Positions 7,348 to 23,638 of a stretch of DNA of 64,000 nucleotides are shown one piece after another (the first letter of the stretch is position 1; each line of letters opens with the position of its first letter). The position numbers and the translations under genes were made by a program. This DNA comes from an uncultured Methanosarcinales archaeon (lineage in GTDB: Archaea; Nanobdellota; Nanobdellia; Woesearchaeales; GW2011-AR9): positions 283,020 to 347,019 of the forward strand of contig CAYFMJ010000001.1 in NCBI GenBank assembly GCA_964344235.1, in the 5' to 3' direction. Below the pieces are notes generated by a model that searched no databases, was not told the DNA's origin, and was given only the letters and a program-made list of their open reading frames with translations.

Positions 7348-7366
7348 TGTGTTTGTAGAATAAAAT

Positions 7367-9173: not shown

Positions 9174-9470
9174 ATGAAATGTGTTTTTGTGTGCAGAATG
9201 GAGAAGAAATATCGGCTTGTATATCGGAAGAGTGAATGTATTGGAGCAGGAGCGTGTGAAGCAGCGTACCCCGAAGCGTGGTTTTTTGATAAAGAAACAA
9301 GTATTGCGACATTGAAGTCGGAGAAGACGATAAGAACCGATGAGCGAGAGGAGTTGGAGTTTGGCCAGGAAGAGTTTGATAAATTCTTAGAATCAGCACA
9401 AGTGTGTCCTGTAATGATTATTGAGGTGTTTGATCAGGAGACGGGGAAGCGGGTTTTTCCTGAGGAGTAA
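9174..9470 (+). CDS. small single-cluster ferredoxin (Pyrococcus Fd-like fold)
   Basis: 98 aa. The motifs ECIGAGACEAAYPEAWFF ... AQVCPVMIIEV follow the C-x2-G/D-x2-C ... CP spacing of archaeal 7-8 kDa ferredoxins. The gene is convergent with the flippase gene and overlaps its 3' end by ~50 nt. It has its own TATA box. Confidence 0.55.
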   Translation: MKCVFVCRMEKKYRLVYRKSECIGAGACEAAYPEAWFFDKETSIATLKSEKTIRTDEREELEFGQEEFDKFLESAQVCPVMIIEVFDQETGKRVFPEE

Positions 9471-10722
9471 CTGGTGGGTTGTTGTTTTGTATTCGTAATT
9501 TCTTAATTCCATAAATGTTTAGTGCGATTTTTATGATAATAGTGATCGCTGTAGCGATTGGAGCTCCAATGATGCCCCATGCTGAAATGAGTAAGACGTT
9601 GAGTAATGTGTTGATAATCAGTGAGATTGCGAAGTCTGCTACGAGAATTTTCATGTACAGTGGAGAGTATTCGTTTTCTCCCACAAAAATAGAGTTGAAG
9701 TAGGAGTAAAGAACAAGAAGTGTTGAGGAAATAACTAGCGCAATTGGTAAGTATGTTGCGGAGTAGCCTGCACCATATAAAATCGGAACGAGGATGTAGC
9801 TTCCTGCCAAAACGAGAAGTGCGAATGGGATAAGTAATTTGAAGATTCTTTTAAGAGATTGTTTTAACCTATAATGATGAATTGCAGCCATCGGCACAAC
9901 GACCATCGGAAAGACATAGCCCAGTAATCGGATGGTGTTAGTGATAGAACCGTATGCTGAATACAAACCAAGACTGGTGAAATCAACGAGGTATTTAATC
10001 GTGATGGCGTCAGCAAAGCGAAGTGAGTAGAAGCTTACCTGCATTAGGAATAATGAGAGGGCGAGGATGAAGAATTTCTTGAAAGGTGTTGATTGTTGTA
10101 ATTGTGGTTTGGGAAAATGTTTGAGAATTTGTGGAATGCTGGCAACGGTTGCAATGAGGAGTGCTATGGAAAAGCTGATGAGAACATAGGTGAATGGGAA
10201 AAGATACAATGCAAGTAAGACGATGAATAGTATGACAAATATCCTGTTGAGTAATGAGTACATGGAAGCACTGACAAATTTCTGCCAACCACGTAGTATG
10301 TTGTAGGAGATGTAATGGAGTGTGTAGAACACTATGTAGAGAGTAAATGCGAGGTTGAAATATGGAAGTTGTGGGTTAAGATGGGTATATGTAGTGATGG
10401 TTATGGTGATCAGGATGAAGAAAATCGTAAATGGAGTTAAGAGGGTGAGTGCGTGTCTCAGTGAATTTCGTAATCGATGTGGGTTTTTGATAATAATTTG
10501 AGTGATTGCATCAGGAATACCAAAGGAGGTGAATAAAAACACGAGGCTCACAAGGCTGAAGAAGTATGTGAAAATTCCTAATTCTTCTTGTCCGTAGAGG
10601 CGGGCAATAAGAATTTTTATGAAGATGATGGTTAAGGCAATAAACCCATAGATGAAGAATGTTTTGAATAAATGGGCGCGTGTTTCGCCACCAAGAGTGA
10701 GTTTTTTAATTTTTTGAATCAT
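9418..10722 (-). CDS. Wzx-like oligosaccharide flippase (MOP/polysaccharide biosynthesis protein family)
   Basis: 434 aa with ~12 predicted TM helices throughout. The C-terminal tail is low-complexity and Pro/Ser/Thr-rich. Confidence 0.65.
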   Translation of the reverse strand: MIQKIKKLTLGGETRAHLFKTFFIYGFIALTIIFIKILIARLYGQEELGIFTYFFSLVSLVFLFTSFGIPDAITQIIIKNPHRLRNSLRHALTLLTPFTIFFILITITITTYTHLNPQLPYFNLAFTLYIVFYTLHYISYNILRGWQKFVSASMYSLLNRIFVILFIVLLALYLFPFTYVLISFSIALLIATVASIPQILKHFPKPQLQQSTPFKKFFILALSLFLMQVSFYSLRFADAITIKYLVDFTSLGLYSAYGSITNTIRLLGYVFPMVVVPMAAIHHYRLKQSLKRIFKLLIPFALLVLAGSYILVPILYGAGYSATYLPIALVISSTLLVLYSYFNSIFVGENEYSPLYMKILVADFAISLIINTLLNVLLISAWGIIGAPIATAITIIIKIALNIYGIKKLRIQNNNPPVTPQEKPASPSPDQTPQ

Positions 10723-10736
10723 CTGTTGTTATTCTG

Positions 10737-11264
10737 TTATTCTCTTTTTGTTTTTCTAGTTTTTGTTTTTGCAAGGAATGAATGGATTTCTTCATGAATA
10801 GTGTGGGGTGTGGGCGAGTATGAGGCAAAGTTGTGTGTCTCGGCTTTCTGAATACACTCAGCGAGTTGTTGTGGTGTGTCACAATATAGTAGGCCGTCTG
10901 TTTCTTGTGCAATGGCTTGCAGAAACTCTACTTGGTGGCGCGGATCAGTTCTGTTTCTGTTGGGGATACCAATTAATTTCTTTCCCATTTTGAGAATTTC
11001 AAAGATACAACCGGGTCCACCGTGACTGATGATTACGTCTGCTTGCTGTTCATACTTTGTTAATGGTGCTTCAAACGTAAACCAGTTGCAATGTTGTGGT
11101 TTGTATTCTCCATGGCCGAGTTGGATAAGAACGTCGTCTTTGATAACTCCCGTGGATTTTAATCTATCAATCTCTTTGACGAGTTCTTCAAATTTTCCGT
11201 TTCCTACTGTGACGAAGAGCATTGTGTTGAATGTCTGATGGGGATTATGACAACCTCCCTGCAT
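10737..11264 (-). CDS. Alg13-like UDP-GlcNAc transferase catalytic subunit (GT28 C-terminal domain)
   Basis: 175 aa. MLFVTVGNGKFEEL...VISHGGPGCIFEIL is Glyco_tran_28_C-like. It is adjacent to and overlaps the Alg14-like gene. Confidence 0.75.
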   Translation of the reverse strand: MQGGCHNPHQTFNTMLFVTVGNGKFEELVKEIDRLKSTGVIKDDVLIQLGHGEYKPQHCNWFTFEAPLTKYEQQADVIISHGGPGCIFEILKMGKKLIGIPNRNRTDPRHQVEFLQAIAQETDGLLYCDTPQQLAECIQKAETHNFASYSPTPHTIHEEIHSFLAKTKTRKTKRE

Positions 11265-11769
11265 GTTTGGCTTTTGGATAGACTTTTTTCATACTTTCCC
11301 ATTGAACGAGGAAGAGATCAGATACAGGGTAGACGAGTTTTCCAGTTTGTGATTTATGGTGGACCCGCACCCATGACTCAATAAAGATTGTTTTGATACC
11401 CATAACTTTAGCAATCCAGAATAATGGGATGGCAGCGGAAGGGCCGGCACTAATAAACACATCTGGTTTTGCTTTTCGTAAGATATTGAAGCCTTGAATA
11501 GTTGTGGGGAACATGTTGAGGACGACTCTAAAGAGGGATTTATCTTTCATTAACCGTGGATTTTTAATGGTGTGAACTTTCCCGGGATGGTGGATTTTCT
11601 TTGCAGATGTTTGGTCATCATGGCCTACGAGGTATTGAAATTGGTGAGTTGGATCGAGATTTTTTGTTAGTTCCAGTATTTGTGAAGTGTGGCCGCCCAT
11701 CCCTAGGTGAATAAGGAGGTTTTTACTGCTGTTTAGCGTGGTACTCATAAAATGGTCTCGGTTCGACAA
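11245..11769 (-). CDS. Alg14-like membrane-anchoring subunit of a bipartite UDP-GlcNAc transferase
   Basis: 174 aa. HLGMGGHTSQILEL ... FISAGPSAAIPLFWIAKVMGIKTIFIESWVRV are conserved Alg14 blocks. Confidence 0.75.
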   Translation of the reverse strand: MSNRDHFMSTTLNSSKNLLIHLGMGGHTSQILELTKNLDPTHQFQYLVGHDDQTSAKKIHHPGKVHTIKNPRLMKDKSLFRVVLNMFPTTIQGFNILRKAKPDVFISAGPSAAIPLFWIAKVMGIKTIFIESWVRVHHKSQTGKLVYPVSDLFLVQWESMKKVYPKAKHAGRLS

Positions 11770-11812: not shown

Positions 11813-13564
11813 ATGTTGAGGGCGGCAAGGAAAACTCCGTTGGAAGAAGGAGAGTGTAGGACGATTAGCGCTACTTCTGGGAACGTTACTGAGAATGGAT
11901 CCTTAACAGAGACACAGACCGTTTTTGGAGCTACAAGTGAACTTGAGGATGTTACGAAAGAAACCCCTCCCCTGGAAACACAAAGAATAAAAGAGCATAA
12001 ATTTAATTTTCCTAAAGGAAAGACAATTGATTTTTTAAAGGATAAGTATCACCTTATTCTGGTAGCAGTTTTAGTTTTGGTTCTGCTCACACGCTTGAAA
12101 TATATTGGTCAAGAAAGTCTATGGAATGATGCAGCTGTTCACTTGTGGTACGTTATAAAAGTTACTAAAGAACCACTGTTTATACTTAGTCATGAATATC
12201 TGCTTGGAGATTATGCAATCCCACAAACAATTATGACTCTTTTTTACTTTGTTGTTAAAGATGCTCTCACTGCGGGGAAGATTGTTGCAGTTTTATATTC
12301 TTTAGTGGGAGTTGTCTTAATTTACCTTTTAGGCTCAGAACTTAAAAGTAAATTCGTTGGGGTCATGGCGGCTATCCTTTTAGCTTTTAATCATATCTTT
12401 TGGTTTTACAGCGTAAGGCCTTTGGGAGATTCACCGCTAATGGTTAGTACTATTTTTATCTTCTATTGCATGGTTCGGTTAGAAAAAGAAAAAACAATGA
12501 TCTGGGGTTTTCTCACGGGGACCGCCTTCGTTCTCGCACTTTTCCATAAGGTCCAATCCTCTATTTTTATCCTTGGTCTTGTTCTTTACTATATTCTTTT
12601 TAAGCGTAAAGAAATGATTAGAAACAAGCCAACGCTTGTTTCTTGGTTGATACCCGTAGGGACAATTGTGGTGGGGCACCTTGTCGCTCAGATCTTTTAC
12701 GGCCGAGATTTGCTTGGAAGATTATTCGGCTTAATGATTTATTTAAGAGGAATGCCTTTTGGATTTGAGGCTGCTGGTATGCTGGAATGGGTCTTTTCTT
12801 GGTATTTAATCCCGTTTGTTTTCTTGGGGGCTTTGTTCGTTGTTTTTTATAAATATAAGAGATTTTATCCGCTACTTGTTTTAGGGCTTTATTACTGGTT
12901 TTACTTTGAGGTTAATGTTGATAATACGCAAGACAGATATGTTTTACCTCTCCTTCCTATAGCAATATTGTTAGCAGTATTCGCGATAGAAGAGATCGCA
13001 TCATACCTCTCGATGGTCTTCCCGAAGAAAGTGAAATCTATCCTAAAGCATGTGATTGTTATTGCTGTTGTTTTGCTCTTAGCTTTGAATTATTATCAAG
13101 TTGGTGATCCTTTGATTTATAATAAATCGTTTAGTTACACTGGCCATGCAGAAGCAGGTCAGTGGATGAAAGAGAATATTCCTGAGGAGACCCCGATTTT
13201 TGCTGGTTCGTATCGTTTTGTTCGTTTGTTTACTGAGCGTGAGTTTGGTGGGCCGGCGGAAGAATCTTTTGGAGGATCAATTTGGAACCTACGGGCAGAA
13301 AAAGTATATGCATCAAATCGGACTGCCTTTGAGGAGGATCTTTTGCGTCTTTCTCAAGAGAGCGATGTCTATTTGGAAATTGACCACATTGAATACACTC
13401 AACCAAGTTGGTATTATCCATTGACTGAAGATAGCGTTAGCTACTTCGCTTCTCTTGGTTTTAACTTAGTGCATGTTGTCAATGGAAAAGTGCTGACGAA
13501 CGAGGGGGTTATGGAAACACCGATGATTTTTATCTTTAAAAAAGATAAAGTAGAGTTAGAATGA
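11813..13564 (+). CDS. GT-C fold membrane glycosyltransferase (ArnT/PMT-like, GT39/GT83-type)
   Basis: The ORF is open from 11738, but that would overlap the divergent Alg14 gene; the Met at 11813 is preceded by GGTGG. About 11 TM helices are followed by a ~200-aa soluble C-terminal domain. The stop overlaps the start of the CE4 gene. Confidence 0.6.
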   Translation: MLRAARKTPLEEGECRTISATSGNVTENGSLTETQTVFGATSELEDVTKETPPLETQRIKEHKFNFPKGKTIDFLKDKYHLILVAVLVLVLLTRLKYIGQESLWNDAAVHLWYVIKVTKEPLFILSHEYLLGDYAIPQTIMTLFYFVVKDALTAGKIVAVLYSLVGVVLIYLLGSELKSKFVGVMAAILLAFNHIFWFYSVRPLGDSPLMVSTIFIFYCMVRLEKEKTMIWGFLTGTAFVLALFHKVQSSIFILGLVLYYILFKRKEMIRNKPTLVSWLIPVGTIVVGHLVAQIFYGRDLLGRLFGLMIYLRGMPFGFEAAGMLEWVFSWYLIPFVFLGALFVVFYKYKRFYPLLVLGLYYWFYFEVNVDNTQDRYVLPLLPIAILLAVFAIEEIASYLSMVFPKKVKSILKHVIVIAVVLLLALNYYQVGDPLIYNKSFSYTGHAEAGQWMKENIPEETPIFAGSYRFVRLFTEREFGGPAEESFGGSIWNLRAEKVYASNRTAFEEDLLRLSQESDVYLEIDHIEYTQPSWYYPLTEDSVSYFASLGFNLVHVVNGKVLTNEGVMETPMIFIFKKDKVELE

Positions 13565-14496
13565 ATCCCAGAAAGTATGCGACAATTCAAGTAGATTTAG
13601 ATGGCTTATGGACAAATTTAGCGTATTATGGTTATGACCACCCTGTGGAAGATGACCCTGTATTTGCCAGTTCAGTACCTCGTTTTATTGAATTGTTCAA
13701 AGAATTTGATGTTAAAGCAACATTTTTCTTGATAGGCAGGGATGGAGAGGTGCCTTGGAAAGCAGAATTGGTAAAAAAATTGGTCGAGGCAGGGCATGAA
13801 GTTGCTAACCATACTTACAATCACCCTTTTGGTTTACGAAAGTTGCCTCAACAAGAGCAAGTTACAGAGATTGAACGAGGAGAAGAAGTAATCAAAAAGA
13901 TTACTGGGAAAAAACCTCGTGGATTTAAAGCTCCAGGGTATGACATGGACGCAGGAGTTTTGCGGTTATTAGCAGAGAAGGGGTATAGGTACGATTCTTC
14001 AATGATTCCAACGTTTGTATACCCGATGATTATGAAGATGATGCAACTCATTTCGGGTGGGGCAAAACGGACGCACGGGCCAAAGTGGAGTTGGGCGTTT
14101 GCTCCGAATACTGTCTATCGGCCGTCAGGTCATAAAGAGTCAAGACGAGGAAAGATGCCCCTGGTAGAGTTGCCGTGCACAGTTGTCCCGGGGTTGCGGT
14201 TACCGTACCATGCAACGTTTGCATTGCGGTTAGGTATGCCTTACTTTTCACCAGCATATGGGCTTACAAAGATGACTCGCGGGACGTTGAATTATGAATT
14301 TCACGCTGTTGATTTAGCAGATGATATTACTGATGATAGATTGACACACGTCAAGGGAATACCTCTTAGTAAAAGGATTGAACGTTGTCGAGCGATCGTC
14401 AAAAAGATGGTAACTCACTATGATGTTGTTGTGTCTGAGGATTTAGTGCAGGAGGTTCAGCAAGGAAATGGTTTGCTCTCTACTCGCAAAAGATGA
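13561..14496 (+). CDS. polysaccharide deacetylase (CE4/NodB homology; ArnD-like)
   Basis: 311 aa. FFLIGRDGEV...GHEVANHTYNHP is a NodB-type motif. Confidence 0.75.
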   Translation: MNPRKYATIQVDLDGLWTNLAYYGYDHPVEDDPVFASSVPRFIELFKEFDVKATFFLIGRDGEVPWKAELVKKLVEAGHEVANHTYNHPFGLRKLPQQEQVTEIERGEEVIKKITGKKPRGFKAPGYDMDAGVLRLLAEKGYRYDSSMIPTFVYPMIMKMMQLISGGAKRTHGPKWSWAFAPNTVYRPSGHKESRRGKMPLVELPCTVVPGLRLPYHATFALRLGMPYFSPAYGLTKMTRGTLNYEFHAVDLADDITDDRLTHVKGIPLSKRIERCRAIVKKMVTHYDVVVSEDLVQEVQQGNGLLSTRKR

Positions 14497-15523
14497 TGAG
14501 GAACAGTACGACCGGTATGTTAGTAATGTTTCCAACGCTGGTTTTGAATATACTTTGCGTTGGCGCGATATTCTTCAACGTCATTTTGGTTTTCGCTCGC
14601 GATGTATCATCGCTAAGGACGAAGAAGGTAAGATTGTAGGGGTTCTGCCATTATTCCAAGCTCGAGGCATATTTGGTAAGAAGCTCGTTTCTTCTCCATA
14701 CGCGATTTATACGGGCATGTTGGCAGATAATGGAGTGGCGAGAGAAGAGATGATGCATTTTGCAAAACAGTTGTCGATTCAGGAACGTGTAAAATTTTGT
14801 GAGGTTCGTGAACAGTTTCAAGATGATTCCTATATTAAAAGAGGGTTTAGGGAAAACAGTACTGTGTTCAATTTCTCGCTTGCCTTATCTTCTGATGTCG
14901 ATGCCGTCTGGAAGAAATTGCCTAAAGGGAGCGTGCGTTGGGGGGTCAAGAAAGCCCAAAAGAGTGGCTTGCAGTGGCGTTGTGGTATTAGTGAGCGGGA
15001 GCTGCAAGGTTTTTATGCTTTGTTTCTTCAGACACGCAAACTGCGGGGTGTTCCGGGATATCCTTATGCCTATTTCAAAGAAATTCTCTCGACATTTGGG
15101 GAGAATGCGAGAATTTACGTTACTTCATACGAGAATAAACCTGTTGCTACAATCTTCTTGATATATCACAAGAATGAAGTGCGATATGCTTTTGCAGGAG
15201 CAGTTCACGATAAAACAATCATGCAATTGCAACCGTACCATCTTATAATGTGGGAAGCAATTAAAGATGCGTGTAACAGAGGGTATACAACGTTTAACTT
15301 TGGTGGTGCTACACTGCAAACAAATGATGGCGGGTTGTATAATTTTAAGAAGAGATGGGCAGATACGGTTGGGAAAGCGTATTCGTATTATTTCCTTCAT
15401 ACAATGAAAGAAGTTCCCTCAAGCGACACTGCATTTTTTGCTTTGGCCACGAAACTATGGAGGAAGCTGCCTCTGTCGGTTGTTGATACGTTAAGTCCTT
15501 TTGTGATACGGCAATTTGTTTAA
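14468..15523 (+). CDS. FemAB-like / Acetyltransf_6 (GNAT-fold) family protein, paralogue 1
   Basis: 351 aa. Conserved with 15553..16602 and 60917..61942 in the blocks LPLFQ, KLPKGSVRWGVKKAQKSGL, TRKLRGVPGYPYAYF, RYAFAGA, TFNFGGA and FKKRWA. Length and spacing are typical of FemAB/BioF2-like tandem GNAT proteins. Confidence 0.55.
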   Translation: MVCSLLAKDDEEQYDRYVSNVSNAGFEYTLRWRDILQRHFGFRSRCIIAKDEEGKIVGVLPLFQARGIFGKKLVSSPYAIYTGMLADNGVAREEMMHFAKQLSIQERVKFCEVREQFQDDSYIKRGFRENSTVFNFSLALSSDVDAVWKKLPKGSVRWGVKKAQKSGLQWRCGISERELQGFYALFLQTRKLRGVPGYPYAYFKEILSTFGENARIYVTSYENKPVATIFLIYHKNEVRYAFAGAVHDKTIMQLQPYHLIMWEAIKDACNRGYTTFNFGGATLQTNDGGLYNFKKRWADTVGKAYSYYFLHTMKEVPSSDTAFFALATKLWRKLPLSVVDTLSPFVIRQFV

Positions 15524-15552
15524 GAGGAATATTTGGCGGATGATAAAGTCTA

Positions 15553-16602
15553 ATGAAATATACAATAACAATGTTAAGTGAGGAGGATCACGAGCTGTAT
15601 GCGCAGTTTGTTAGTAGCTGCCCTGATGCCCTTTATGAACATTCTTTAGCTGTGAAAGATTTGGTTCAAAGATATTTTAAGTTTGAACCGAGATATATTG
15701 TGGCGAAGAATTCAGTTGGACAAATTGTTGGGGCTTTGCCGTTGTTTAAAGCGAAGAGTTTTGTGGAAGGAACACGCCTCGTTTCTATCCCATTTTTTCC
15801 ATATGGCGGCGTGATTGGGGAGAGTGATGAATGTAAACGTTTGCTGTTAGAGGAAGCCAAGAAGTTGTCAAGTACAAGTAAGTTCTTGGAAATGCGTCAA
15901 CATGGTGAACTCTCGGCGGAAGTTGCTCGAGGTTTTGTAAGACAAGCCCCGATTATTAATTTTTATCTTGACTTGAAAGAGTCCGAGGAGGAGATGTTAC
16001 AATCGTTACATAAAAGTGTGCGATATGATATTCGAAAAGCACAGAAAAATAATTTGCAATTTTCTATGGGGGATACAACCAAGTTGCTCAATGATTTTTA
16101 TGATGTGTATCTGAACACGCGGAAGAGAAGAGGTGTACCGGCGTGGCCAATGGGGCTCTTTAAAGAGGCATTGAAAACATGTGATACAAAAGTTGCGGTG
16201 ACATACCATGAAGGAAAACCAATTGCTGGTTGCTTTTTATTTTTTGATAAAAAGACAATTGAATATGCTTTTGCGGGGACTGACTATCGGCACTCTGCGC
16301 TTTGTCCATATTATCTCTTACTGTGGGAGATTATTTGTTATGGAATCAAGCAAGGTTACACTGTTTTAGAGTTGGGTGGAACGACTAAAGTTATGAATGA
16401 GGGGAATATGTATTCTTTCAAGAAACGGTGGAGTACGAAAACTGAAGAGATCCCTTACTACTTTTATGCACGTGAGGAGAAAAATATTCCTGTGTTACAG
16501 AATTCATTTAAAGTGTATACTCTCTATGGTAAAGTTTGGAGTTTACTGCCGAAGTGGTTGATAAAAAAAATAAGTCCGCCAATTATACGGCAATTTAGTT
16601 GA
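15553..16602 (+). CDS. FemAB-like / Acetyltransf_6 family protein, paralogue 2
   Basis: 349 aa. Tandem duplicate of the upstream gene. Shared blocks: LPLFKA, HKSVRYDIRKAQKNNL, TRKRRGVPAWPMGLF, EYAFAGT, LELGGTT and FKKRWS. Confidence 0.55.
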   Translation: MKYTITMLSEEDHELYAQFVSSCPDALYEHSLAVKDLVQRYFKFEPRYIVAKNSVGQIVGALPLFKAKSFVEGTRLVSIPFFPYGGVIGESDECKRLLLEEAKKLSSTSKFLEMRQHGELSAEVARGFVRQAPIINFYLDLKESEEEMLQSLHKSVRYDIRKAQKNNLQFSMGDTTKLLNDFYDVYLNTRKRRGVPAWPMGLFKEALKTCDTKVAVTYHEGKPIAGCFLFFDKKTIEYAFAGTDYRHSALCPYYLLLWEIICYGIKQGYTVLELGGTTKVMNEGNMYSFKKRWSTKTEEIPYYFYAREEKNIPVLQNSFKVYTLYGKVWSLLPKWLIKKISPPIIRQFS

Positions 16603-16625
16603 TGATGTGGGGAGTGAAGGTATAA

Positions 16626-17630
16626 ATGGTTTCCGTCAAACAAAAATTACAACAAACGTTATGTTCGTATCTTGGTGTTCGTCATGCAGTGCTATTTAGT
16701 TCTTGCAGGAATGCGTTGCATACATTATTAGTTTCATTACAGTTGGGGGGGGGAGAGGTTATCGTGCAGGATTTTATTTGTGATAGCTTAAATCAAGCGA
16801 TTGAGAACGCAGACGGCACAGTTGTCGGTGTTCCGGTGGACGAAAAAACGTTTAACCTTTCTGCAGAAACGGTTGAACAATATATTACGCCAAAAACGAA
16901 GGCAGTTCTCTTCGTTCATACGTACGGGAATCCAACGGGTATTGCTGAGGTTGCAACACTTTGTCAAGATAAGGGTATTGTTTTGGTTGAGGATATTGCC
17001 CATGCTTTGGGCGCTGTTTGTCAGGGGAAAAAAGCAGGGACGTTTGGACAATATGCAGTGTATAGTTTTACAAAACAATTAGTTAGTGGTGGTGGTGGAG
17101 CAGTACTTACGAATGAAGATACGACAGCACTAGTTAAAGAACGTGATCGACATTCAACGAGTGCGCCCATTCTGGGTTACGTGAAACGCGTGATGGCTTC
17201 TCTCTATGAGACAAGAGCGTTTTTTCTTTCAAAGATTCTGATTGATGTCGCTCGAAAGAAAGCGGATTTGAAAATGACGAATGCTCTTGATAGACATTAT
17301 AGTTGTTCTTCGATTGAAGCATGGATGATTCTGCGGCAATTGAATGGCTTGGAGAGGTTGGTGGAGAAGAGACAGCGAAATTATCGTTATTGGTCAACAC
17401 TTGTGAAGACACAAGCGGTTATGAATGGTTGTGAATCTAGTTGCAATTATTTAACAATTATTTTTTCCAGCCGTAAAAATCGAGATAAGGCTGTGGCTCA
17501 AAGTCGTTTTTTACTTCCCCCCTGGCCTGGTTCAAATGTTTCTGAAAAGATTGCTTTTGTGCCTAATAATCCTGCTTTTACACAGAAAAAGTTACGAATA
17601 ATCGCTGGAGCGAGTACAAAAGATTTATAA
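16626..17630 (+). CDS. DegT/DnrJ/EryC1/StrS-family PLP enzyme (short aminotransferase-like)
   Basis: 334 aa. VLVEDIAHALGAV...GQYAVYSFTKQLVSGGGGAV contains the conserved PLP-lysine context. It is shorter than canonical DegT enzymes. Confidence 0.65.
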   Translation: MVSVKQKLQQTLCSYLGVRHAVLFSSCRNALHTLLVSLQLGGGEVIVQDFICDSLNQAIENADGTVVGVPVDEKTFNLSAETVEQYITPKTKAVLFVHTYGNPTGIAEVATLCQDKGIVLVEDIAHALGAVCQGKKAGTFGQYAVYSFTKQLVSGGGGAVLTNEDTTALVKERDRHSTSAPILGYVKRVMASLYETRAFFLSKILIDVARKKADLKMTNALDRHYSCSSIEAWMILRQLNGLERLVEKRQRNYRYWSTLVKTQAVMNGCESSCNYLTIIFSSRKNRDKAVAQSRFLLPPWPGSNVSEKIAFVPNNPAFTQKKLRIIAGASTKDL

Positions 17631-17638
17631 GGAACTCT

Positions 17639-18010
17639 TTGCGGATGAGAATTGAGATGAAAGATAATACAAAAGCGGTGCTTCTGGCTTTAGTTGTAAC
17701 AGTTATTGTCTCTGTGTCTCAGATTCTCTTGAAATTTGGTAGTGAACAGTTTGAATTTTCATTGAATCAAATTACAAATTATCCTCTTATTGTTGGAGGG
17801 GTGTTGTATGTTTTAGGAGCTTTTGTGTTGATTAAGGCGTTTCGTCTCGGTGAACTTTCTGTTGTGTATCCTGTTATGGCATCAAGTTATATTTTAGTGA
17901 CACTGTTATCTGTGCGTTATCTTGGTGAGATTATTACAACACAGAAGTGGGTTGGATTAGCTTTAATTACAATCGGAGTTGTATTTATTGGTAGGGGGGG
18001 TTCACAATGA
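17639..18010 (+). CDS. small DMT/SMR-like 4-TM transporter subunit (ArnE/ArnF-like)
   Basis: 123 aa. QILLKFGS ... ELSVVYPVMASSYILVTLLS ... WVGLALITIGVV are EamA/ArnE-type blocks. Its stop overlaps the start of the next small TM gene. Confidence 0.6.
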   Translation: MRMRIEMKDNTKAVLLALVVTVIVSVSQILLKFGSEQFEFSLNQITNYPLIVGGVLYVLGAFVLIKAFRLGELSVVYPVMASSYILVTLLSVRYLGEIITTQKWVGLALITIGVVFIGRGGSQ

Positions 18011-18339
18011 GTTTAGTTACCGGGCTGTTCTTTTTGCTGATTTCTTCAATAATTGGCGCGTTTAGTACGCTTCTTTTTAAGACTGGGTCTCGGTTTAAAA
18101 TTAGCATTCGAAATAATCACCTCATTGGGGCAGTTGTCCTTGCGGCTTTTTCGTTTGTGTTTTACATTCTTGCGTTACAACAAGCGCCGTTGACGTTCAT
18201 TTATCTGACTGCTTCTATTAGTTATATTTGGGCGATAATCCTGGCTAAAAGTATTTTGAAAGAAAAGATTAACAGAAATAAAATCATTGGAGTATCCCTT
18301 ATTATCATCGGTATTGTTGTTCTTAATTTCCCATTCTAA
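18007..18339 (+). CDS. small DMT/SMR-like 4-TM transporter subunit (second subunit of pair)
   Basis: 110 aa, four hydrophobic helices. Paired, translationally coupled with the preceding gene like ArnE/ArnF heterodimers. Confidence 0.55.
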   Translation: MSLVTGLFFLLISSIIGAFSTLLFKTGSRFKISIRNNHLIGAVVLAAFSFVFYILALQQAPLTFIYLTASISYIWAIILAKSILKEKINRNKIIGVSLIIIGIVVLNFPF

Positions 18340-18388
18340 TGGTGTCCTGTTAAGGAAAATTTATAAATCACGTCTCAGAGAGGCAGAT

Positions 18389-19117
18389 ATGAAATTATCG
18401 ATTGTTGTTCCGTGCTATAATGAGGAGGAAGGTGTTGAAAACCTCTCACAGAAGCTTGAACCGATTCTCCAGGAATTGCAAAAGGAGTGGCAGTTAGAAC
18501 TTATTTTTGTTGATGATGGAAGCAAAGATAGAACGTACGACTTATTGCAGCAGTATTTTGGTGAGAAAGAGTATGTCAAAATTGTGAAGCATGAAGTCAA
18601 TAAGAATATTGGTGCTGCGATGCGAACGGGGTTTTCACATTCAACGGGAGATGTTATTGTGACTATGGATAGTGATTGCACGTACGATCCGCAAGAAATC
18701 TTTGCGATGCTGGGCCTTATGAAGGATGGTGCTTCAATTGTTACGGCTTCACCATATCACCCTCAAGGGGGTGTGAGGAATGTTCCTCTTTACAGAATTT
18801 TTCTGAGTAAAGCTATCACTCAAATTTATAGAACACTTACTGGCTCGAAGATTTACACGTTTACTGCTCTCTTTCGAGCCCATACTCGTGATGTTGTAGA
18901 TACGGTTGCTTTCCAAGCTGATGATTTCCTCGCTACTGCAGAAATGTTAATCAAAGCGTCAATAGCAGGTCATAAAATTCAAGAGCATCCCAGTGTTCTC
19001 AATGTAAGAGAATATGGTGTTTCTAAAATGAGATTGTTACAAGTGATTGGGAATCATGCAAAGTTTGTGGGAAAAGTTGCATCGCTGCGCTTCCGTGGTA
19101 GTTTTAGAAAAAAGTAG
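18389..19117 (+). CDS. GT2 polyprenyl-phosphate sugar synthase (Dpm1/ArnC/GtrB-like)
   Basis: The ORF is open from 18287, but the Met at 18389 (MKLSIVVPCYNEEEG) is the canonical GT2 N-terminus. Also present: IFVDDGSKDRT ... TMDSDCTY. Confidence 0.8.
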   Translation: MKLSIVVPCYNEEEGVENLSQKLEPILQELQKEWQLELIFVDDGSKDRTYDLLQQYFGEKEYVKIVKHEVNKNIGAAMRTGFSHSTGDVIVTMDSDCTYDPQEIFAMLGLMKDGASIVTASPYHPQGGVRNVPLYRIFLSKAITQIYRTLTGSKIYTFTALFRAHTRDVVDTVAFQADDFLATAEMLIKASIAGHKIQEHPSVLNVREYGVSKMRLLQVIGNHAKFVGKVASLRFRGSFRKK

Positions 19118-19130
19118 AAGGTTTGGAGTT

Positions 19131-20231
19131 ATGAAAATAATTACGATTCTAGGAACAAGGCCAGAAATCACGAAACTTTCTCCCGTCTTACCGCTGCTTG
19201 ATGAAGCATTTGATCATAAAGTCATCCATACTGGCCAGCATTATGACTATAAAATGGATGAGATTTTTTTTGAGGAATTGCAATTGCGGAAACCAGATTA
19301 TATGTTGCATGTGGGGAGTGGGAGTCATGCTGAAATGACTGCAAAGATGTTAATTGAGATTGAAAAAATTCTTGTTGCAGAGAAGCCAGATTGGGTGATT
19401 GTGTTTGCCGATCCTAACACTCCGCTTGCAGGGGCGTTAGCAGCAGTGAAGTTACACATTCCTGTGATTCACATGGAAGCAGGGTGTCGTTCTTTTAACA
19501 AAAAGATGCCGGAAGAGATTAATCGAATTGTGTGTGACCATTGTGCAGACTTGTTGCTAGCTCCAGATGAAGTGGCTAGGGGCAACTTGTTACGAGAGGG
19601 TTTGCCTGAAGAGAAGATTGAGGTTGTTGGCAGTACAGCACTTGAAGCGGCGTTGCGGAATGTGGTAATTGCGCGTGAGAAGTCGAAGATTTTGGAAGAG
19701 CTGGGGCTGGTTGATGGCAAATATGCCCTTCTAACAATTCATCGAGCAGAGAATACTGATAATGCAGAAGTGTTGTGTGGTTTAGTGGGTGCAATGAATA
19801 AAATTGCTGAAAAAATTCCGATTGTATTTCCAATGCATCCCCGTTTTGTCAAAGCGTTGCAGCGTGAAGGGTTGCAGTTATCAGAGAAGATTCACGCGAT
19901 TGAGGCAGTTGGTTATGTAGACATGTTGATGTTGTTGGATAATGCATTATTTGTGATGACTGGGTCTGGCGGGTTACAGGAAGAAGCAGCAGCGTTAGAT
20001 ACGCCTTGTCTTGTGATTCGGAATGAAACAGAGTGGACGTATTTAACTGATGCAGGGAAAAATTTGTTGGTTAGTAATGATGGTGGTAAAATAGTGAATG
20101 TGGTCACTGACCTGCTTGACCACCCTGAAAAGCTTACTAATATGAAGAATGTTCAATTAACTTTAAATACGGATGTTTCCCGAAATGTAGTTGATGCAAT
20201 CAAAAGAAATTGTTCAACGAAAGACGCTTAA
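19131..20231 (+). CDS. wecB: UDP-N-acetylglucosamine 2-epimerase (non-hydrolysing, WecB/WbpI-like)
   Basis: The Met at 19131 (MKIITILGTRPEITKLSPV) is 14 nt after the GT2 stop. Conserved blocks: HTGQHYDYKMDEIFF ... HMEAGCRSFN ... PEEINR ... LMTGSGGLQEEA. The ORF track starts earlier, at 19047. Confidence 0.85.
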   Translation: MKIITILGTRPEITKLSPVLPLLDEAFDHKVIHTGQHYDYKMDEIFFEELQLRKPDYMLHVGSGSHAEMTAKMLIEIEKILVAEKPDWVIVFADPNTPLAGALAAVKLHIPVIHMEAGCRSFNKKMPEEINRIVCDHCADLLLAPDEVARGNLLREGLPEEKIEVVGSTALEAALRNVVIAREKSKILEELGLVDGKYALLTIHRAENTDNAEVLCGLVGAMNKIAEKIPIVFPMHPRFVKALQREGLQLSEKIHAIEAVGYVDMLMLLDNALFVMTGSGGLQEEAAALDTPCLVIRNETEWTYLTDAGKNLLVSNDGGKIVNVVTDLLDHPEKLTNMKNVQLTLNTDVSRNVVDAIKRNCSTKDA

Positions 20232-21186
20232 AGGTAAGAACGTTTTAGTGACTGGTGGTGCTGGCTTTGTTGGTGGGCATTTAGTTGATAGGCTCATTGA
20301 GGAAGAACCAGCTTCTATTGTTGTTGCGTCTAATTTCTTTTTAGGAAGCATTTCAAATTTAGATGATGCGCTGAAACGGTTTCCCGTTAAAATTGTACGG
20401 TGTGATGTTGCTGATTTTGAAGAGATTAAAGACGCAATCGTTGATAATGATATTGAAGTTGTGTTTAATTTAGCAGTCATACCTCTGCCAACCTCGCTTG
20501 TAAAACCGGAATGGACTATTCGAAAAAATATTGAGATGACAATTAATATTTGCCAGTTGTTGCGGGAAAAGAAGTTTAAGACGTTAATTCAATACTCCTC
20601 TTCCGAAGCATTTGGTTCAGCACAATACGTGCCGATGGACGGGAAACATCCACTTGACCCTGAAACGCCGTATGCAGCTTCCAAAGCAGCAACAGATCAT
20701 ATTGCGTTATCCTATCATCACACGTTTGGCTGTGACGTTGCTGTGGTGAGGCCGTTTAACCAATATGGGCCGCGGCAGAATGTTAAGAAGTATGCAGGAA
20801 TAATTCCATTAATGGTTGGCAAGATGGTGCGAGGCGAGGATGTGACGATTTTTGGTGATGGGGAACAAACGAGAGATTTTATGTACGTGGGAGATACAGC
20901 AGATTTAACCATTGAAGTTTACAAAAACCCTGCAAGTCGAGGAAGAGTTATTAATGCAGGTAGTGGCCGGGAAGTTTCAATCAAAACTGTTTTAACAAAG
21001 ATGGCAGATATTTTAGAGTATACAAAACCGTTTGTGCATCTCGATGCACGACCCGGTGATGTGAGGAGACACTGTTCTGATATTTCTGAAGTTAGGGAAG
21101 TGCTAGGATGGGAGCCGAAAACTTCGTTTGAGGAAGGGCTTCGTAAAACGGTTGAATGGTACCGTGATCATCCTGAGGTTTTTTGA
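20191..21186 (+). CDS. NAD-dependent epimerase/dehydratase (extended SDR; UXS/ArnA-C-terminal-like)
   Basis: 331 aa. VLVTGGAGFVGGHLVDRL is the Rossmann GxxGxxG motif. YAASKAATDHI is the YxxxK motif. Confidence 0.8.
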   Translation: MMQSKEIVQRKTLKGKNVLVTGGAGFVGGHLVDRLIEEEPASIVVASNFFLGSISNLDDALKRFPVKIVRCDVADFEEIKDAIVDNDIEVVFNLAVIPLPTSLVKPEWTIRKNIEMTINICQLLREKKFKTLIQYSSSEAFGSAQYVPMDGKHPLDPETPYAASKAATDHIALSYHHTFGCDVAVVRPFNQYGPRQNVKKYAGIIPLMVGKMVRGEDVTIFGDGEQTRDFMYVGDTADLTIEVYKNPASRGRVINAGSGREVSIKTVLTKMADILEYTKPFVHLDARPGDVRRHCSDISEVREVLGWEPKTSFEEGLRKTVEWYRDHPEVF

Positions 21187-21731
21187 TGATTCATTCGACA
21201 GCAGATGTTTCTCCAGAAGCAGTGTTGGGGAAGAATGTAAAAGTGTGGCACCAATCGCAGGTACGGGAGAAAGTGATTATCGGTGATAATTGTATTTTAG
21301 CAAAGAATGTGTATGTTGATAAAGATGTAGTTATTGGCAAGAATTGTAAAATTCAAAATAATAGCTCTCTGTACCATGGGGCGTTGTTAGGAGATGGCGT
21401 ATTTATTGGCCCACATTGTGTTTTGACAAATGACAGATATCCTCGCGCTGTTACAGTTGATGGGGATTTGAAACAGGATACTGATTGGGAAGAAGGAAAA
21501 GTTGTGATTAAAGGGGGGGCGTCCTTGGGTGCGGGGGTTATTGTGTTGCCGGGAGTTACAATTGGAAAGTATGCACTCGTGGGAGCAGGGAGTGTTGTTG
21601 CGAAAGACGTTCCTGATTTTGGGTTAGTGTATGGTAACAGAGCGGAGTTACGGGGATTTGTGTGTAAGTGTGGGAAGAAGCTAGCTGTTGGTAAGATTGG
21701 CGGGGAGATGTGTGAGGAATGTTTAGAATAG
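21183..21731 (+). CDS. left-handed beta-helix (hexapeptide) sugar N-acetyltransferase with C-terminal CxxC...CxxC tail
   Basis: 182 aa. Repeated [LIV]-G-x4 hexapeptides (IGDNCILAKNVYV, IGKNCKIQNNSSL, IGPHCVLTNDRYP). The C-terminus FVCKCGKKLAVGKIGGEMCEEC resembles a zinc ribbon. Confidence 0.7.
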   Translation: MMIHSTADVSPEAVLGKNVKVWHQSQVREKVIIGDNCILAKNVYVDKDVVIGKNCKIQNNSSLYHGALLGDGVFIGPHCVLTNDRYPRAVTVDGDLKQDTDWEEGKVVIKGGASLGAGVIVLPGVTIGKYALVGAGSVVAKDVPDFGLVYGNRAELRGFVCKCGKKLAVGKIGGEMCEECLE

Positions 21732-21736: not shown

Positions 21737-22669
21737 TTATATTCTCTCTAATTCTGGGATCATTTCTGTTGGATCAACCCCATAGCTTTCTGCCATGCAG
21801 ATGAATGTTGGAGAAACGGTGGCAGGGAATCTTGTGTGGTTATCAAGTAGATGTGCTATGCCTGCTGCATCTGCTGTTACCGAAGCACCTTGGGAATATT
21901 TCCCCGAGTGTATCCCCTGGCGCATTTGTTCTGCAGTAACGTCAATTTCTGCATAAGTCGTACGCGTAATATCTAAGTCGTGAATTGAACGAATAATGGC
22001 AGTAACTCTAACATCTTGTACTCTCGCACTTAAACTTGCCACTCCTGGAAACTCTAGGGAAAGCATTCTTTTAACATGGTCTTCGAATGTAGAGCTATCG
22101 GCTGTCACTTCATCAACGAAGAGAGAAGGGTCGCCGCTGATTCGTCCACCACTTGGGAAAGACCAACTGTTTGTGTAGCAATCAACGTTGTTGGTTCTCA
22201 CTCCGTATAAGAACTGCCTATCACTTGTTCTGATAAGTGTGCTCACTGCAAAAGCGGTTGCTAGCTCATTGCCATTTGGAACTATTGCTCGTAGCGCTCT
22301 ATCCGAGACTTTTCGATATCTGTAAGGGCGATGTTGCGCAGTCCATGTATCATCAATCCCATTCACGGGAGTCGTTCCATGGTGTTGTCTGTAGTCTGTC
22401 TTTCCAAGCCGTATTGCTGTTGTGTCGCTTTCTGGTTGGATTCCATTGAAATATACTAATGGGCCATTGAACAACGTTTTCCTTGCAACTTCTGCTTCTG
22501 CCTTTTTCTCTTTCCACACTCGCTCTATCCTCTTTTTTACTGCTGGTGTTGGGGTAAAATCTTCTCCTCGTTCAAATACTAGGTTTTCACCTAAGGTAAG
22601 GTCACTTGCGTCAAGTTCGGTGATCCAAGAACGTGAGCGATCTCGGGAGTCAAGATGGTATAGGGGCAT
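21737..22669 (-). CDS. hypothetical protein with no catalytic motif I can recognise
   Basis: 310 aa, single long ORF on the opposite strand to the flanking operons. It appears somewhat GC-richer than its neighbours by eye. It may be an internally duplicated alpha/beta fold. Confidence 0.45.
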   Translation of the reverse strand: MPLYHLDSRDRSRSWITELDASDLTLGENLVFERGEDFTPTPAVKKRIERVWKEKKAEAEVARKTLFNGPLVYFNGIQPESDTTAIRLGKTDYRQHHGTTPVNGIDDTWTAQHRPYRYRKVSDRALRAIVPNGNELATAFAVSTLIRTSDRQFLYGVRTNNVDCYTNSWSFPSGGRISGDPSLFVDEVTADSSTFEDHVKRMLSLEFPGVASLSARVQDVRVTAIIRSIHDLDITRTTYAEIDVTAEQMRQGIHSGKYSQGASVTADAAGIAHLLDNHTRFPATVSPTFICMAESYGVDPTEMIPELERI

Positions 22670-22742
22670 TTTTGCTATTTTTTTGTAAATAGAATAAAAA
22701 TCTTATGTATTAATTCCTCTTTCATTAAAAGTTGCATAAGTT

Positions 22743-22750
22743 ATTTAAAC
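22743..22750 (+). promoter_or_regulatory. TATA-like box (ATTTAAAC) for the 22772 gene
   Basis: Its centre lies ~25 nt upstream of the ATG at 22772. Confidence 0.35.
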
Positions 22751-22771
22751 TGATTTGTTCTCGGAGTTGCT

Positions 22772-23170
22772 ATGTCAACGTGGCGTGAGGATTTCGATGC
22801 GTGGAAGGCGTTTGCGGACGCTTATGGTTTACATTCTTTAGATGATCTCTCTGATAGATTTGGCATACCGATTCCAGAAAGTCCAAGTTTCTCTTTTGAA
22901 ACCATTCCTGTGCCACTTTCTCCTGAAAATCAAGATACTCTCGCCGAAGAAGTTCAAAAGCTTTGGGATGTCGAATTTGCTCCTAATGGCTATGAGAATT
23001 CACCTCGTTATGGCGTTTTTGGCATTGATGATAACTTGTGGCTAATTACTGATGGGCTTAGATTTGAGGCATGGGCAACCGACTATGCAACATCTCGCTT
23101 TGCAAATAGAGATGACAAAGAAGTACTTTGGGCTACATTGAATGAGAATCAAAGAAGTTATTTAGAATGA
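22772..23170 (+). CDS. hypothetical acidic protein
   Basis: 132 aa ORF with its own TATA box. It is Asp/Glu/Trp-rich and I recognise no family. Confidence 0.45.
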   Translation: MSTWREDFDAWKAFADAYGLHSLDDLSDRFGIPIPESPSFSFETIPVPLSPENQDTLAEEVQKLWDVEFAPNGYENSPRYGVFGIDDNLWLITDGLRFEAWATDYATSRFANRDDKEVLWATLNENQRSYLE

Positions 23171-23176
23171 TTAAAG

Positions 23177-23638
23177 TTGCCAGGCATTATTGTAGTAACG
23201 AAAATCGCTGGTTCTGGGGGGCGAGATGATAAGTATTTACTCTCTTCACGAAAAGATGTTCGTGATGGTGTGGCTCGGAGGAGGGACCAATCTTTAGAAT
23301 CACCACAAGGATTAATCCCATTGGGAGATTATGCAAACCCTGTCCACACACATGCTCTTAATTTATTGTGTGATGAAGCGGAGATTAGTGAAGGAATGGT
23401 TGAAGGGTTATACTTTAATGGCCTTGTTGAGTCACCTGCGTATGGTGATTTTGCTTTAGTGTTCACTGCAGAAGTTGACCCCGCAGCGCACGTTGTTGCT
23501 GCAACAGAGGAAGCGACTGATTTACATTATAATCGTCAATGGTTCTCGGCAGATGAAATCAATGAGATGCAACCAAATGTAATTAATCCTGCAGTCTATA
23601 ATGCGTTGAAAGTAGCGGGTGTTGTGCGGGAAGATTAA
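23177..23638 (+). CDS. hypothetical protein
   Basis: 153 aa ORF, 6 nt after the previous one. It has no motif I recognise. Confidence 0.45.
   Translation: MPGIIVVTKIAGSGGRDDKYLLSSRKDVRDGVARRRDQSLESPQGLIPLGDYANPVHTHALNLLCDEAEISEGMVEGLYFNGLVESPAYGDFALVFTAEVDPAAHVVAATEEATDLHYNRQWFSADEINEMQPNVINPAVYNALKVAGVVRED

Follow-up and report, generated by a model that had tools for sequence, protein, structure and literature searches.

The window analysed here is a stretch of 64,000 nucleotides (positions 283,020 to 347,019, forward strand, of contig CAYFMJ010000001.1, assembly GCA_964344235.1, from an uncultured archaeon placed by GTDB among the Woesearchaeales), and it carries an operon that appears to encode a composite system of modules by which an amino-acid-bearing diamino sugar would be attached to a surface glycan from the outside. 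We give this reading about an even chance of being correct, every enzymatic step in it being predicted. The system would be a hybrid in which a Wbp/Vim-type aminoacyl-sugar pathway has been inserted into an Arn-type three-component lipid-carrier framework, the chemistry of both parts being deduced from homology, gene context and fusions.

Eleven open reading frames (ORFs) fill positions 11813-21731 on the plus strand, their ends overlapping or nearly abutting (ORF listing combined with Pfam and NCBIfam domain searches). A GT-C fold glycosyltransferase, GTC1 (11813-13564; Pfam PMT_2, 40.7 bits), is followed by a NodB-type CE4 de-N-acetylase, a predicted analogue of VimE, of XrtA-type deacetylases and of ArnD (13561-14496; Polysacc_deac_1, 88 bits). 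Next come a VimA-like FemAB protein, putatively an aminoacyl transferase acting on a sugar amine (FemAB1, 14468-15523), a second FemAB-like transferase (FemAB2, 15553-16602), both matching Pfam FemAB and Acetyltransf_6, and a short DegT-like pyridoxal phosphate (PLP) enzyme of 334 residues, DegTs (16626-17630; Pfam DegT). Two half-size EamA/DMT proteins with four transmembrane (TM) helices each, Eam1 (17639-18010; EamA, 32.7 bits) and the ArnE-like Eam2 (18007-18339; EamA, 37.3 bits), then precede a 242-residue GT2 of the polyprenyl-phosphate sugar synthase type (DPMS/ArnC/GtrB class; 18389-19117), and three genes related to nucleotide sugars close the run. The sequence-only reading of this DNA had described these genes as one tightly packed, co-oriented operon; genes, domains and span are all confirmed, whereas the unit itself extends beyond 21731, through a second DegT (DegT2) and a Gfo-type oxidoreductase to a second GT-C gene, GTC2, which ends at 27395, and divergent Alg14, Alg13 and Wzx genes lie upstream.

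Tblastn searches with the window proteins covered 17 genome loci picked by their GTC1 homologues, together with some additional loci, and recovered the same gene order in relatives at 40-69% protein identity. The operon order recurs in independent metagenome-assembled genomes (MAGs) and metagenome contigs (L005, L006/L102, L008, L012, L013, L015, L016, L021, L022, L109), and an arrangement kept in this way is far beyond chance; the expectation that the operon would prove conserved as a unit was thus borne out. GT2, the EamA pair and GTC1/GTC2 are kept together in at least 11 Woesearchaeota/Nanoarchaeota-like loci, and the closest named relatives of the window proteins lie in Candidatus Woesearchaeota and Nanoarchaeota MAGs, which marks the contig as one of a DPANN archaeon. 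The window also matches metagenome contigs from ENA project PRJEB17505. GTC2 (25725-27395, plus strand; PMT_2, 56 bits) is the last gene of the conserved block, its synteny being seen in L010, L011, L022, L102 and L105. At the other end, GTC1 stands head-to-head with Alg14-like, Alg13-like and Wzx-like flippase genes that form an N-glycan chitobiose-core module (9418-11769, minus strand; Pfam Alg14, Glyco_tran_28_C and Polysacc_synt), an arrangement conserved in most related loci, and the AglB/STT3 oligosaccharyltransferase gene farther upstream (3850-6624, plus strand; Pfam STT3) is conserved in L007, L009, L016, L107 and L109. Locus L106 stops at GTC1 and is not informative on the genes that follow it, while L107, L108 and the P0055 locus are other GT-C/SDR/GT2 variants without bearing on that question. 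A scan of metagenomes with a GT2 pattern yielded mostly generic GT2 genes, only L022-L034 being informative. A literature search returned no description of the cluster in Woesearchaeota or DPANN archaea.

The tailoring cassette and its flippase slot

Comparison of the related loci revealed that CE4, the two FemAB genes, DegTs, Eam1 and Eam2 constitute a six-gene cassette that is present or absent as a whole between GTC1 and GT2. Eleven loci have it, always with both FemAB copies, and three (L010, L011 and L105) lack it. In these three, GTC1 is followed by a single gene encoding an LPG_synthase_TM protein, the flippase domain of MprF (L010:5165-6175; L011:11577-13316, where it is fused to a methyltransferase domain; L105:10803-11783), and then by the orthologous series running from GT2 and WecB to DegT2, Gfo and GTC2. 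Neither the window nor any cassette-bearing locus has an LPG_synthase_TM gene, and no such gene occurs alongside an EamA pair. Variant locus L009 encodes a GtrA-type protein.

Since the EamA pair disappears with the cassette while GT2 and the GT-C genes remain, the pair co-varies with the tailoring enzymes and not with GT2 or GT-C. Such co-variation is what would be expected if the pair flips a tailored, amine-bearing lipid-linked sugar, as ArnE/F do with undecaprenyl-phosphate-linked 4-amino-4-deoxy-L-arabinose (Ara4N) only once it is deformylated (PMC8495848). The GT2 proteins of loci without the cassette nest within those of loci that have it, which weakly favours a common donor in both and a modification that takes place after GT2.

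The same comparison bears on another explanation, namely that the lipid-linked N-glycan to which Alg13/Alg14 contribute is what CE4 and FemAB modify, on its chitobiose core or on some other GlcNAc, while the EamA pair moves something else. The head-to-head placement of GTC1 and the cassette with Alg14/Alg13/Wzx in most loci speaks for it, as does the established action of the FemABX enzymes of Staphylococcus aureus on a lipid-linked substrate, lipid II. Against it, the Alg13/Alg14/Wzx module is equally present in the cassette-less L010, L011 and L105, the closest characterised pair of a CE4 with a TIGR03019 protein acts on a 2,3-diacetamido sugar, and a CE4-GT2 fusion in locus L029, described below, adjoins Wbp-like genes. 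We consider this explanation improbable.

In one relative (L006/L102:952-8568) the two FemAB genes of the cassette are separated by an inserted module for phosphonate biosynthesis. It comprises a fusion of phosphoenolpyruvate (PEP) mutase with a cytidylyltransferase, a thiamine-pyrophosphate-dependent decarboxylase, an iron-containing alcohol dehydrogenase, a CDP-alcohol phosphatidyltransferase and a radical-SAM/SPASM enzyme. The window itself carries a PEP-mutase-cytidylyltransferase fusion and an iron-containing alcohol dehydrogenase 20 kb downstream (42237-44775), and these two occurrences suggest phosphonate-decorated glycans.

Enzymes of delivery, tailoring and donor synthesis

Eam1 and Eam2 are both four-TM EamA halves with 32% mutual identity, and the start of Eam2 overlaps the stop of Eam1 by 4 nucleotides. 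The best NCBIfam match of Eam2 is ArnE (43.9 bits), drug-efflux SMR models scoring lower, and it aligns with Escherichia coli ArnE over its full length (26% identity over 103 residues). Eam1 scores 29.7 bits with ArnE and 25.8 bits with ArnF, its best match being a phosphonate-associated DMT family; for both proteins these values fall below the ArnE and ArnF cut-offs of 92 and 99 bits. Within that limit the description of a translationally coupled, co-conserved ArnE/ArnF-like pair stands, and by score the pair sides with EamA/ArnE rather than with drug-efflux SMR proteins. Lysine and arginine counts over 10 orthologues are biased 55:25 in Eam1 and 7:69 in Eam2, predicting an N-in and an N-out topology, respectively; the former also fits the N-terminal fusion of Eam1 to the cytoplasmic DegTs in relatives. 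From these opposite positive-inside biases we predict an antiparallel heterodimer, a fixed pair like the SMR pairs of the EbrAB/MdtIJ type.

Alternatively, the pair might be an ordinary transporter that exports metabolites or drugs, or one that brings in an amino-acid-like compound used by the FemAB and PLP enzymes. Small solutes are indeed the usual cargo of EamA/DMT and SMR proteins, and the sub-cut-off scores and the phosphonate-associated best match of Eam1 agree with such a role, as does the want of proof of flipping by the small DMT class (PMC11127046). The position of the pair, however, is fixed between GT-C and GT2, in a slot where it and an MprF-flippase-like protein are mutually exclusive and where variant L009 has a GtrA-type protein; moreover, L025 has a small EamA gene next to its distant GT2 homologue, and the best match of Eam2 is ArnE itself. 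A plain transporter is, in our estimation, quite unlikely.

The best matches of GT2 in the PDB are all polyprenyl-phosphate glycosyltransferases (PfDPMS of Pyrococcus furiosus, 95 bits; ArnC, 80 bits; GtrB, 59 bits), so that it does not group with the cytoplasmic enzymes of lipid-linked oligosaccharide assembly. Its ArnC-like character likewise held at the level of the DPMS/ArnC/GtrB class: identity to E. coli ArnC is 30% over 223 residues, and ArnC is the top NCBIfam match (NF007986, 91 bits against a cut-off of 529). The TM scan detected no TM helix in it. More distant homologues (40-47% identity) are flanked by Gfo, DegT, LbH and WecB genes in L023, L024, L025, L028, L029, L030 and L032, on contigs that are unrelated to the window and probably bacterial. 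This company indicates that the donor of GT2 is most likely a diacetamido sugar.

GTC1 consists of a disordered N-terminal tail of about 67 residues, about 10 TM helices and a soluble C-terminal domain of about 145 residues after the last of them. An ESxWND motif (E101, W104, N105, D106) in the first loop after TM1 is invariant in the family alignment. This location, together with a segment rich in lysine and arginine ahead of TM1, predicts an outward-facing active site, as had been anticipated, the support coming from topology prediction. An AlphaFold2 model (pLDDT 83) adopts the GT-C fold, with ALG12, STT3/PglB, ArnT and ALG9 as top Foldseek matches in the PDB at query-normalised TM-scores of about 0.47-0.60. 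The GT-C part of the original ArnT-like assignment is therefore sound. A specifically ArnT-like enzyme was rejected, because neither BLAST nor phmmer matched GTC1 with E. coli ArnT and Foldseek placed ALG12 and STT3 at least as close. BLASTP detected no similarity between GTC1 and GTC2.

Among the tailoring enzymes, CE4 had been taken for an ArnD-like deacetylase. It is indeed a CE4 that probably acts in the cytoplasm, without TM helix or signal peptide, yet its NCBIfam score is higher with the XrtA-type deacetylase model TIGR03006 (72 bits) than with ArnD (NF011923, 26 bits, cut-off 382), and identity to E. coli ArnD is 27% over 71 residues. The metal-binding and catalytic residues D12, D14, H84, H88 and H248 are conserved among orthologues, and D12, H84 and H88 are invariant when E. 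coli ArnD is included in the alignment. Both FemAB proteins, which are paralogues with 37% identity, match TIGR03019 (pepcterm_femAB) best and end-to-end, at 192 bits for FemAB1 and 165 bits for FemAB2 against a cut-off of 260. As TM helices and signal peptides are lacking in CE4, both FemAB proteins, DegTs and GT2, all of these are predicted to act in the cytoplasm.

DegTs is unusual in lacking about 30 N-terminal residues. In sequence it resembles known DegT enzymes over roughly its first 165-200 residues only, corresponding to Pfam profile positions 27-259 of 360, and the invariant catalytic Lys150 and Asp123 are kept. The AlphaFold2 model (pLDDT 89) shows a full sugar-aminotransferase fold, with TM-scores of 0.74-0.78 to WbpE and perosamine synthase. 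Scores in a homologue search drop from 260 to 108 bits across a gap, and by sequence DegTs forms a separate subfamily, seen solely on contigs of the Woesearchaeota/Nanoarchaeota-like type. The DegTs enzyme is fused to Eam1, on the N-terminal side and through a low-complexity linker, in P0070, P0074, P0098 and L109; the fusion ORFs span L021:3384-4796, which confirms the P0074 case, and L109:14592-16022. An apparent further fusion in L022 was discarded, a stop codon lying in between.

A second kind of fusion was found in L029, an unrelated 496-kb metagenome contig, where a 566-residue ORF (L029:9074-10774) joins a CE4 with a DUF3473 domain to a GT2 sharing 41% identity with that of the window. 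It is followed by genes for DegT, Gfo, LbH, an amine-oxidase-like flavoprotein, a second CE4, an NTP-transferase-GT2 fusion and a PMT_2 GT-C. The fused CE4 was rejected as an orthologue of the window CE4, the stand-alone CE4 of L029 being closer. Together with the EamA gene of L025, the DegTs-Eam1 and CE4-GT2 fusions suggest that the tailoring enzymes are physically tied to the membrane steps.

A second, paralogous Vim-like module lies beside GT4 genes at 56846-63939, running to the window edge. It comprises a short DegT-like gene (59881-60927, plus strand), a FemAB-like gene (60890-61942, plus; TIGR03019, 200 bits), a CE4 gene (61946-62683, minus; TIGR03006, 80 bits) and a gene for a WbpS-like protein with an AsnB-like synthetase domain (62680-63939, minus; TIGR03108, 239 bits). 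Near it, a short-chain dehydrogenase/reductase (SDR) gene (56846-57847, minus) scores 160 bits as a UDP-xylose/UDP-4-keto-pentose synthase and 120 bits as ArnA; no other gene of the window is as ArnA-like.

Donor synthesis would fall to four genes of the conserved block. A WecB/WbpI-type non-hydrolysing UDP-HexNAc 2-epimerase (19131-20231, plus strand; TIGR00236, 334 bits, cut-off 210), whose ORF is open from 19047 and likely starts at the ATG at 19131, directly follows GT2 in nearly all related loci. A WbpD-like N-acetyltransferase with a left-handed beta-helix, LbH (21183-21731, plus; Pfam Hexapep; NeuD/PglB/VioB subfamily, 95 bits), is conserved beside WecB and DegT2. DegT2 (23688-24755, plus) is a WbpE-like sugar aminotransferase matching Pfam DegT over its full length (428 bits) and is syntenic in relatives, and the Gfo/Idh/MocA oxidoreductase (24752-25732, plus) is a WbpB analogue with the archaeal UDP-GlcNAc 3-dehydrogenase family NF040723 as its best match (346 bits, cut-off 450). 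Rather than merely completing the operon, as first thought, WecB and LbH thus join DegT2 and Gfo in what is, at the level of enzyme class, a Wbp-like set predicted to make UDP-2,3-diacetamido-2,3-dideoxy-glucose or -mannose. Between LbH and DegT2 (21737-23638) lie three ORFs without Pfam or NCBIfam match, of 310 (minus), 132 (plus) and 153 residues (plus); L102 has a match-less minus-strand ORF at the same place.

The extended SDR between WecB and LbH (20191-21186, plus strand) had been read as the decarboxylase half of ArnA. Its scores (LegB, 216 bits; RmlB, 208 bits; ArnA, 55 bits) assign it to the 4,6-dehydratase type, and it is optional among relatives: the cassette-bearing L008, L016, L021 and L022 lack it, and the cassette-less L105 has it. 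On the same distribution the SDR was rejected as a 4-keto sugar source for DegTs.

These assignments decide how far the operon can be regarded as a plain archaeal Arn pathway, in which DegTs would be ArnB, the SDR the ArnA decarboxylase, GT2, CE4, the EamA pair and GT-C the counterparts of ArnC, ArnD, ArnE/F and ArnT, the sugar Ara4N-like and the FemAB proteins accessory. The gene classes do correspond one-to-one in a co-oriented operon, and similarities of GT2 to ArnC, Eam2 to ArnE and DegTs to ArnB are detectable. All the same, the comparison of profiles with arnBCADTEF left every gene short of its Arn equivalog cut-off by a wide margin; GTC1 has no sequence similarity to ArnT; the SDR is of the wrong type and inconstant; GT2 is linked genomically to Gfo, DegT2, LbH and WecB; and both FemAB genes are invariant members of the cassette. 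Nor is DegTs specifically ArnB-like, the downstream DegT2 being closer (37% identity over 374 residues). The sequence-only reading was right that the ArnA formyltransferase half is missing, no formyltransferase domain being present, whereas the FemAB genes do not replace it and correspond, with CE4, to VimA and VimE. A plain Arn pathway is very unlikely.

Predicted pathway and surrounding glycan island

In the pathway that we favour, Gfo as 3-dehydrogenase, DegT2 as aminotransferase and LbH as N-acetyltransferase would produce UDP-GlcNAc3NAc along the lines of the Wbp and Methanococcus routes, with possible conversion to the manno epimer by WecB. The TM-less GT2 would move the sugar onto dolichyl phosphate (Dol-P) at the cytoplasmic face. 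In genomes with the cassette, the cytoplasmic CE4 would then take off an N-acetyl group, in parallel to ArnD on its undecaprenyl-phosphate-linked formylated substrate (Und-P-Ara4FN) and to VimE of Porphyromonas, and the two VimA-like FemAB paralogues would acylate the freed amine or amines with one or more amino acids, probably taken from aminoacyl-tRNA. DegTs would work at the membrane beside Eam1, and our best guess is that it adds or converts a further amino group on the sugar or on the aminoacyl substituent. Eam1 and Eam2, as an antiparallel ArnE/F-like heterodimer, would flip the amine-bearing Dol-P-sugar, and GTC1, GTC2 or both would transfer the sugar outside. The conserved Alg13/Alg14/Wzx/AglB neighbourhood points to the AglB-dependent N-glycan as the likeliest acceptor. 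In cassette-less genomes, the unmodified Dol-P-sugar would be handled by the MprF-type LPG_synthase_TM protein in the same slot. Charging of a carrier, deacylation, flipping and transfer outside, as initially proposed, fit the co-conserved GT2, CE4, EamA pair and GT-C; the suggested post-flipping tailoring of an archaeal glycan already has an archaeal precedent in AglD/AglR/AglS of Haloferax (PMC3871713).

Several points weigh against this pathway. The cassette-less sample is small (n=3), and no equivalog cut-off is reached for any Arn, Vim-related or Wbp family, which leaves all of the chemistry deduced. No keto-sugar source was found that co-varies with DegTs, the SDR included, and the GT2-fused CE4 of L029 is of a subtype different from the window CE4. 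No WbpA-type UDP-sugar 6-dehydrogenase domain occurs in any ORF of at least 120 residues in the 64-kb window, although such a gene could lie elsewhere in the genome, and the sugar may accordingly be something other than a uronic acid. For small DMT/SMR-like or LPG_synthase_TM proteins of such systems, direct proof of flipping has yet to be reported (PMC11127046). The second short-DegT/FemAB/CE4 module (59881-62683) lacks an adjacent EamA pair or GT-C, so that the tailoring enzymes would not strictly need a flippase context and tailoring at the nucleotide level stays a serious rival. Finally, the Vim product of Porphyromonas is believed to pass to a cytoplasmic GT4, VimF (PMC13086638), and CE4 and FemAB here could similarly act on a nucleotide sugar rather than on a lipid-linked one.

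The rival that gathers the last points holds that CE4, both FemAB proteins and DegTs act on a UDP-sugar, which a cytoplasmic glycosyltransferase then passes to the dolichyl-diphosphate-linked N-glycan for Wzx and AglB, the GT2, EamA pair and GT-Cs being an unrelated neighbouring three-component system. Besides VimF, which handles an aminoacyl sugar, and the second module beside GT4 genes, the solubility of all modifying enzymes agrees with it. It leaves unaccounted for, however, that the cassette always sits precisely between GTC1 and GT2, that the EamA pair is gained and lost with CE4, FemAB and DegTs and has LPG_synthase_TM in its place when absent, that DegTs-EamA and CE4-GT2 fusions exist, and that the conserved block contains no GT4 or GT-B gene. 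Consequently, we regard an exclusively soluble route as rather unlikely, and prefer tailoring on the lipid carrier.

Were the preferred pathway to hold, the cluster would predict a specific surface decoration, an aminoacyl-2,3-diamino sugar, for organisms in which cell surfaces mediate host dependence; for Woesearchaeota and most other DPANN archaea, neither the structure of a glycan nor a route of glycosylation has, as far as we know, been worked out. The cluster further suggests that deacetylation followed by aminoacylation, the Vim-type step, is not confined to bacteria, from which alone, to our knowledge, the two combined pathways have been known so far, and that this step can be coupled to delivery by a lipid carrier and GT-C instead of a cytoplasmic glycosyltransferase. 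The presence and absence of the cassette would moreover constitute a natural experiment on which proteins flip polyprenyl-phosphate sugars, nominating the EamA pair (with the cassette) and LPG_synthase_TM (without it) as flippase families that are apparently matched to their substrates. The DegT-EamA and CE4-GT2 fusions offer concrete constructs for biochemistry. Far more speculatively, and with little expectation that it is right, the aminoacylated diamino sugar could be an archaeal counterpart of the bacterial 'linking sugar' of type IX secretion (T9SS) and exosortase systems, exported on dolichyl phosphate by the EamA pair, installed by GT-C and used for sortase-like anchoring. Its free alpha-amine would then be the nucleophile for a sortase-like enzyme (archaeosortase) that anchors the C-termini of DPANN surface proteins. 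On the same speculative reading, DegTs joined to EamA would rank as the first PLP enzyme to work on a sugar linked to polyprenyl phosphate.

The remainder of the window is mostly a surface-glycan island, with UppP, AglB/STT3, methyltransferase, B12-radical-SAM enzyme, Wzx-, Alg13- and Alg14-like genes upstream and nonulosonic-acid, phosphonate and further glycosyltransferase genes downstream; tRNA and Rfam scans of the window gave no match. A class-I methyltransferase and a B12-binding radical-SAM enzyme between AglB and Wzx (6640-9079) keep that position in most related loci and perhaps methylate a lipid or glycan, and a further B12-radical-SAM enzyme is encoded at 51189-52898. A PglD-like N-acetyltransferase, an AMP-dependent acyl-CoA-ligase-like enzyme and a 4'-phosphopantetheinyl transferase are grouped at 28358-31405, which hints at an additional N-acyl (non-acetyl) sugar modification. 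Nonulosonic-acid genes occupy 34076-40439 (NeuB, a CMP-transferase-like cytidylyltransferase and two APH-family kinases), together with a 726-residue DegT-SDR fusion protein at 38259-40439. Near the start of the window (875-2104) is an ATP-citrate-lyase beta-subunit-like gene with ATP-grasp and citrate-binding domains, unexpected in a small DPANN genome; the P0055 locus has a citrate-synthase-family gene at a comparable position.

Comparison with known systems

Judged by its sequences, the system lies outside the Arn family on the criteria for ArnA, ArnC, ArnD and ArnT, while the EamA pair has the architecture of ArnE/ArnF at scores below their cut-offs. In the Arn pathway, a GT2 charges the polyprenyl phosphate with an N-acylated amino sugar, a cytoplasmic CE4 de-acylates the sugar, ArnE/F are thought to flip the product and a GT-C transfers it outside (PMC8495848). 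The operon has the same enzyme classes for the membrane half and would follow the same order of steps. It differs in the sugar, here probably GlcNAc3NAc or ManNAc3NAc and not Ara4N, and in the carrier, here predicted to be dolichol. The acceptor also differs from the lipid A of the Arn pathway, lipid A being absent from archaea. Furthermore, GT2 has none of the C-terminal TM helices of ArnC, CE4 is nearer to XrtA/Vim-type deacetylases, no ArnA domains are present, and an aminoacylation step by two FemAB proteins and a further PLP enzyme would be added.

The likeness to the Wbp/Vim pathway concerns the tailoring and donor genes. In Porphyromonas gingivalis and Tannerella forsythia, the CE4 VimE removes the 2-N-acetyl group, after which VimA adds Ser or Gly; VimA matches TIGR03019, and swapping vimA between the two species swaps the amino acid (PMC7468200). 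On this precedent the FemAB proteins are predicted to aminoacylate the amine freed by CE4. Both systems have in common the Wbp-type genes for a 2,3-diacetamido sugar (WbpB, WbpE and WbpD types with a WbpI epimerase) and a CE4 adjoining a TIGR03019-type FemAB, the likeness resting on family matches, and the second module of the window has an AsnB-like gene resembling WbpS/TIGR03108. The present system differs in being archaeal, in its two FemAB paralogues and additional short DegT, in that no WbpA was found in the window, and in that no VimF-type GT4 lies in the conserved block, delivery being predicted to proceed through Dol-P, the EamA pair and GT-C.

XrtA/PEP-CTERM exopolysaccharide loci share the same families, TIGR03006, TIGR03019 and TIGR03108 being the best for the window CE4, its three FemAB-like proteins and the AsnB-like protein, respectively. 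Here the scores are below the trusted cut-offs, and the context is archaeal and one of N-glycosylation; a search of the window for an archaeosortase or exosortase found none, and no sortase-like gene or PEP-CTERM proteins were seen there.

For donor synthesis, the acetamido-sugar pathway of Methanococcus, reportedly worked out by Namboori and Graham in 2008, comprises a UDP-GlcNAc 3-dehydrogenase, an aminotransferase, an acetyltransferase and a 2-epimerase, the same enzyme set as Gfo, DegT2, LbH and WecB here. In methanococci, cytoplasmic glycosyltransferases add the acetamido-sugars to a lipid-linked glycan, and we know of no Dol-P-monosaccharide, GT-C or aminoacyl step in that pathway.

The delivery half is closest in plan to the three-component systems, in which a polyprenyl-phosphate sugar synthase and a putative flippase are combined with a GT-C that acts after export (PMC11127046; PMC3871713); examples are GtrA/GtrB/Gtr*, CsbB/GtcA/YfhO, ORF15/14/12 of C. 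youngae and AglD/AglR/AglS of Haloferax. The gene trio is the same here, with the flippase slot taken by the EamA pair, LPG_synthase_TM or GtrA depending on the relative. Unlike those systems, two GT-C genes flank the block and a tailoring cassette is interposed, which co-varies with the type of flippase.

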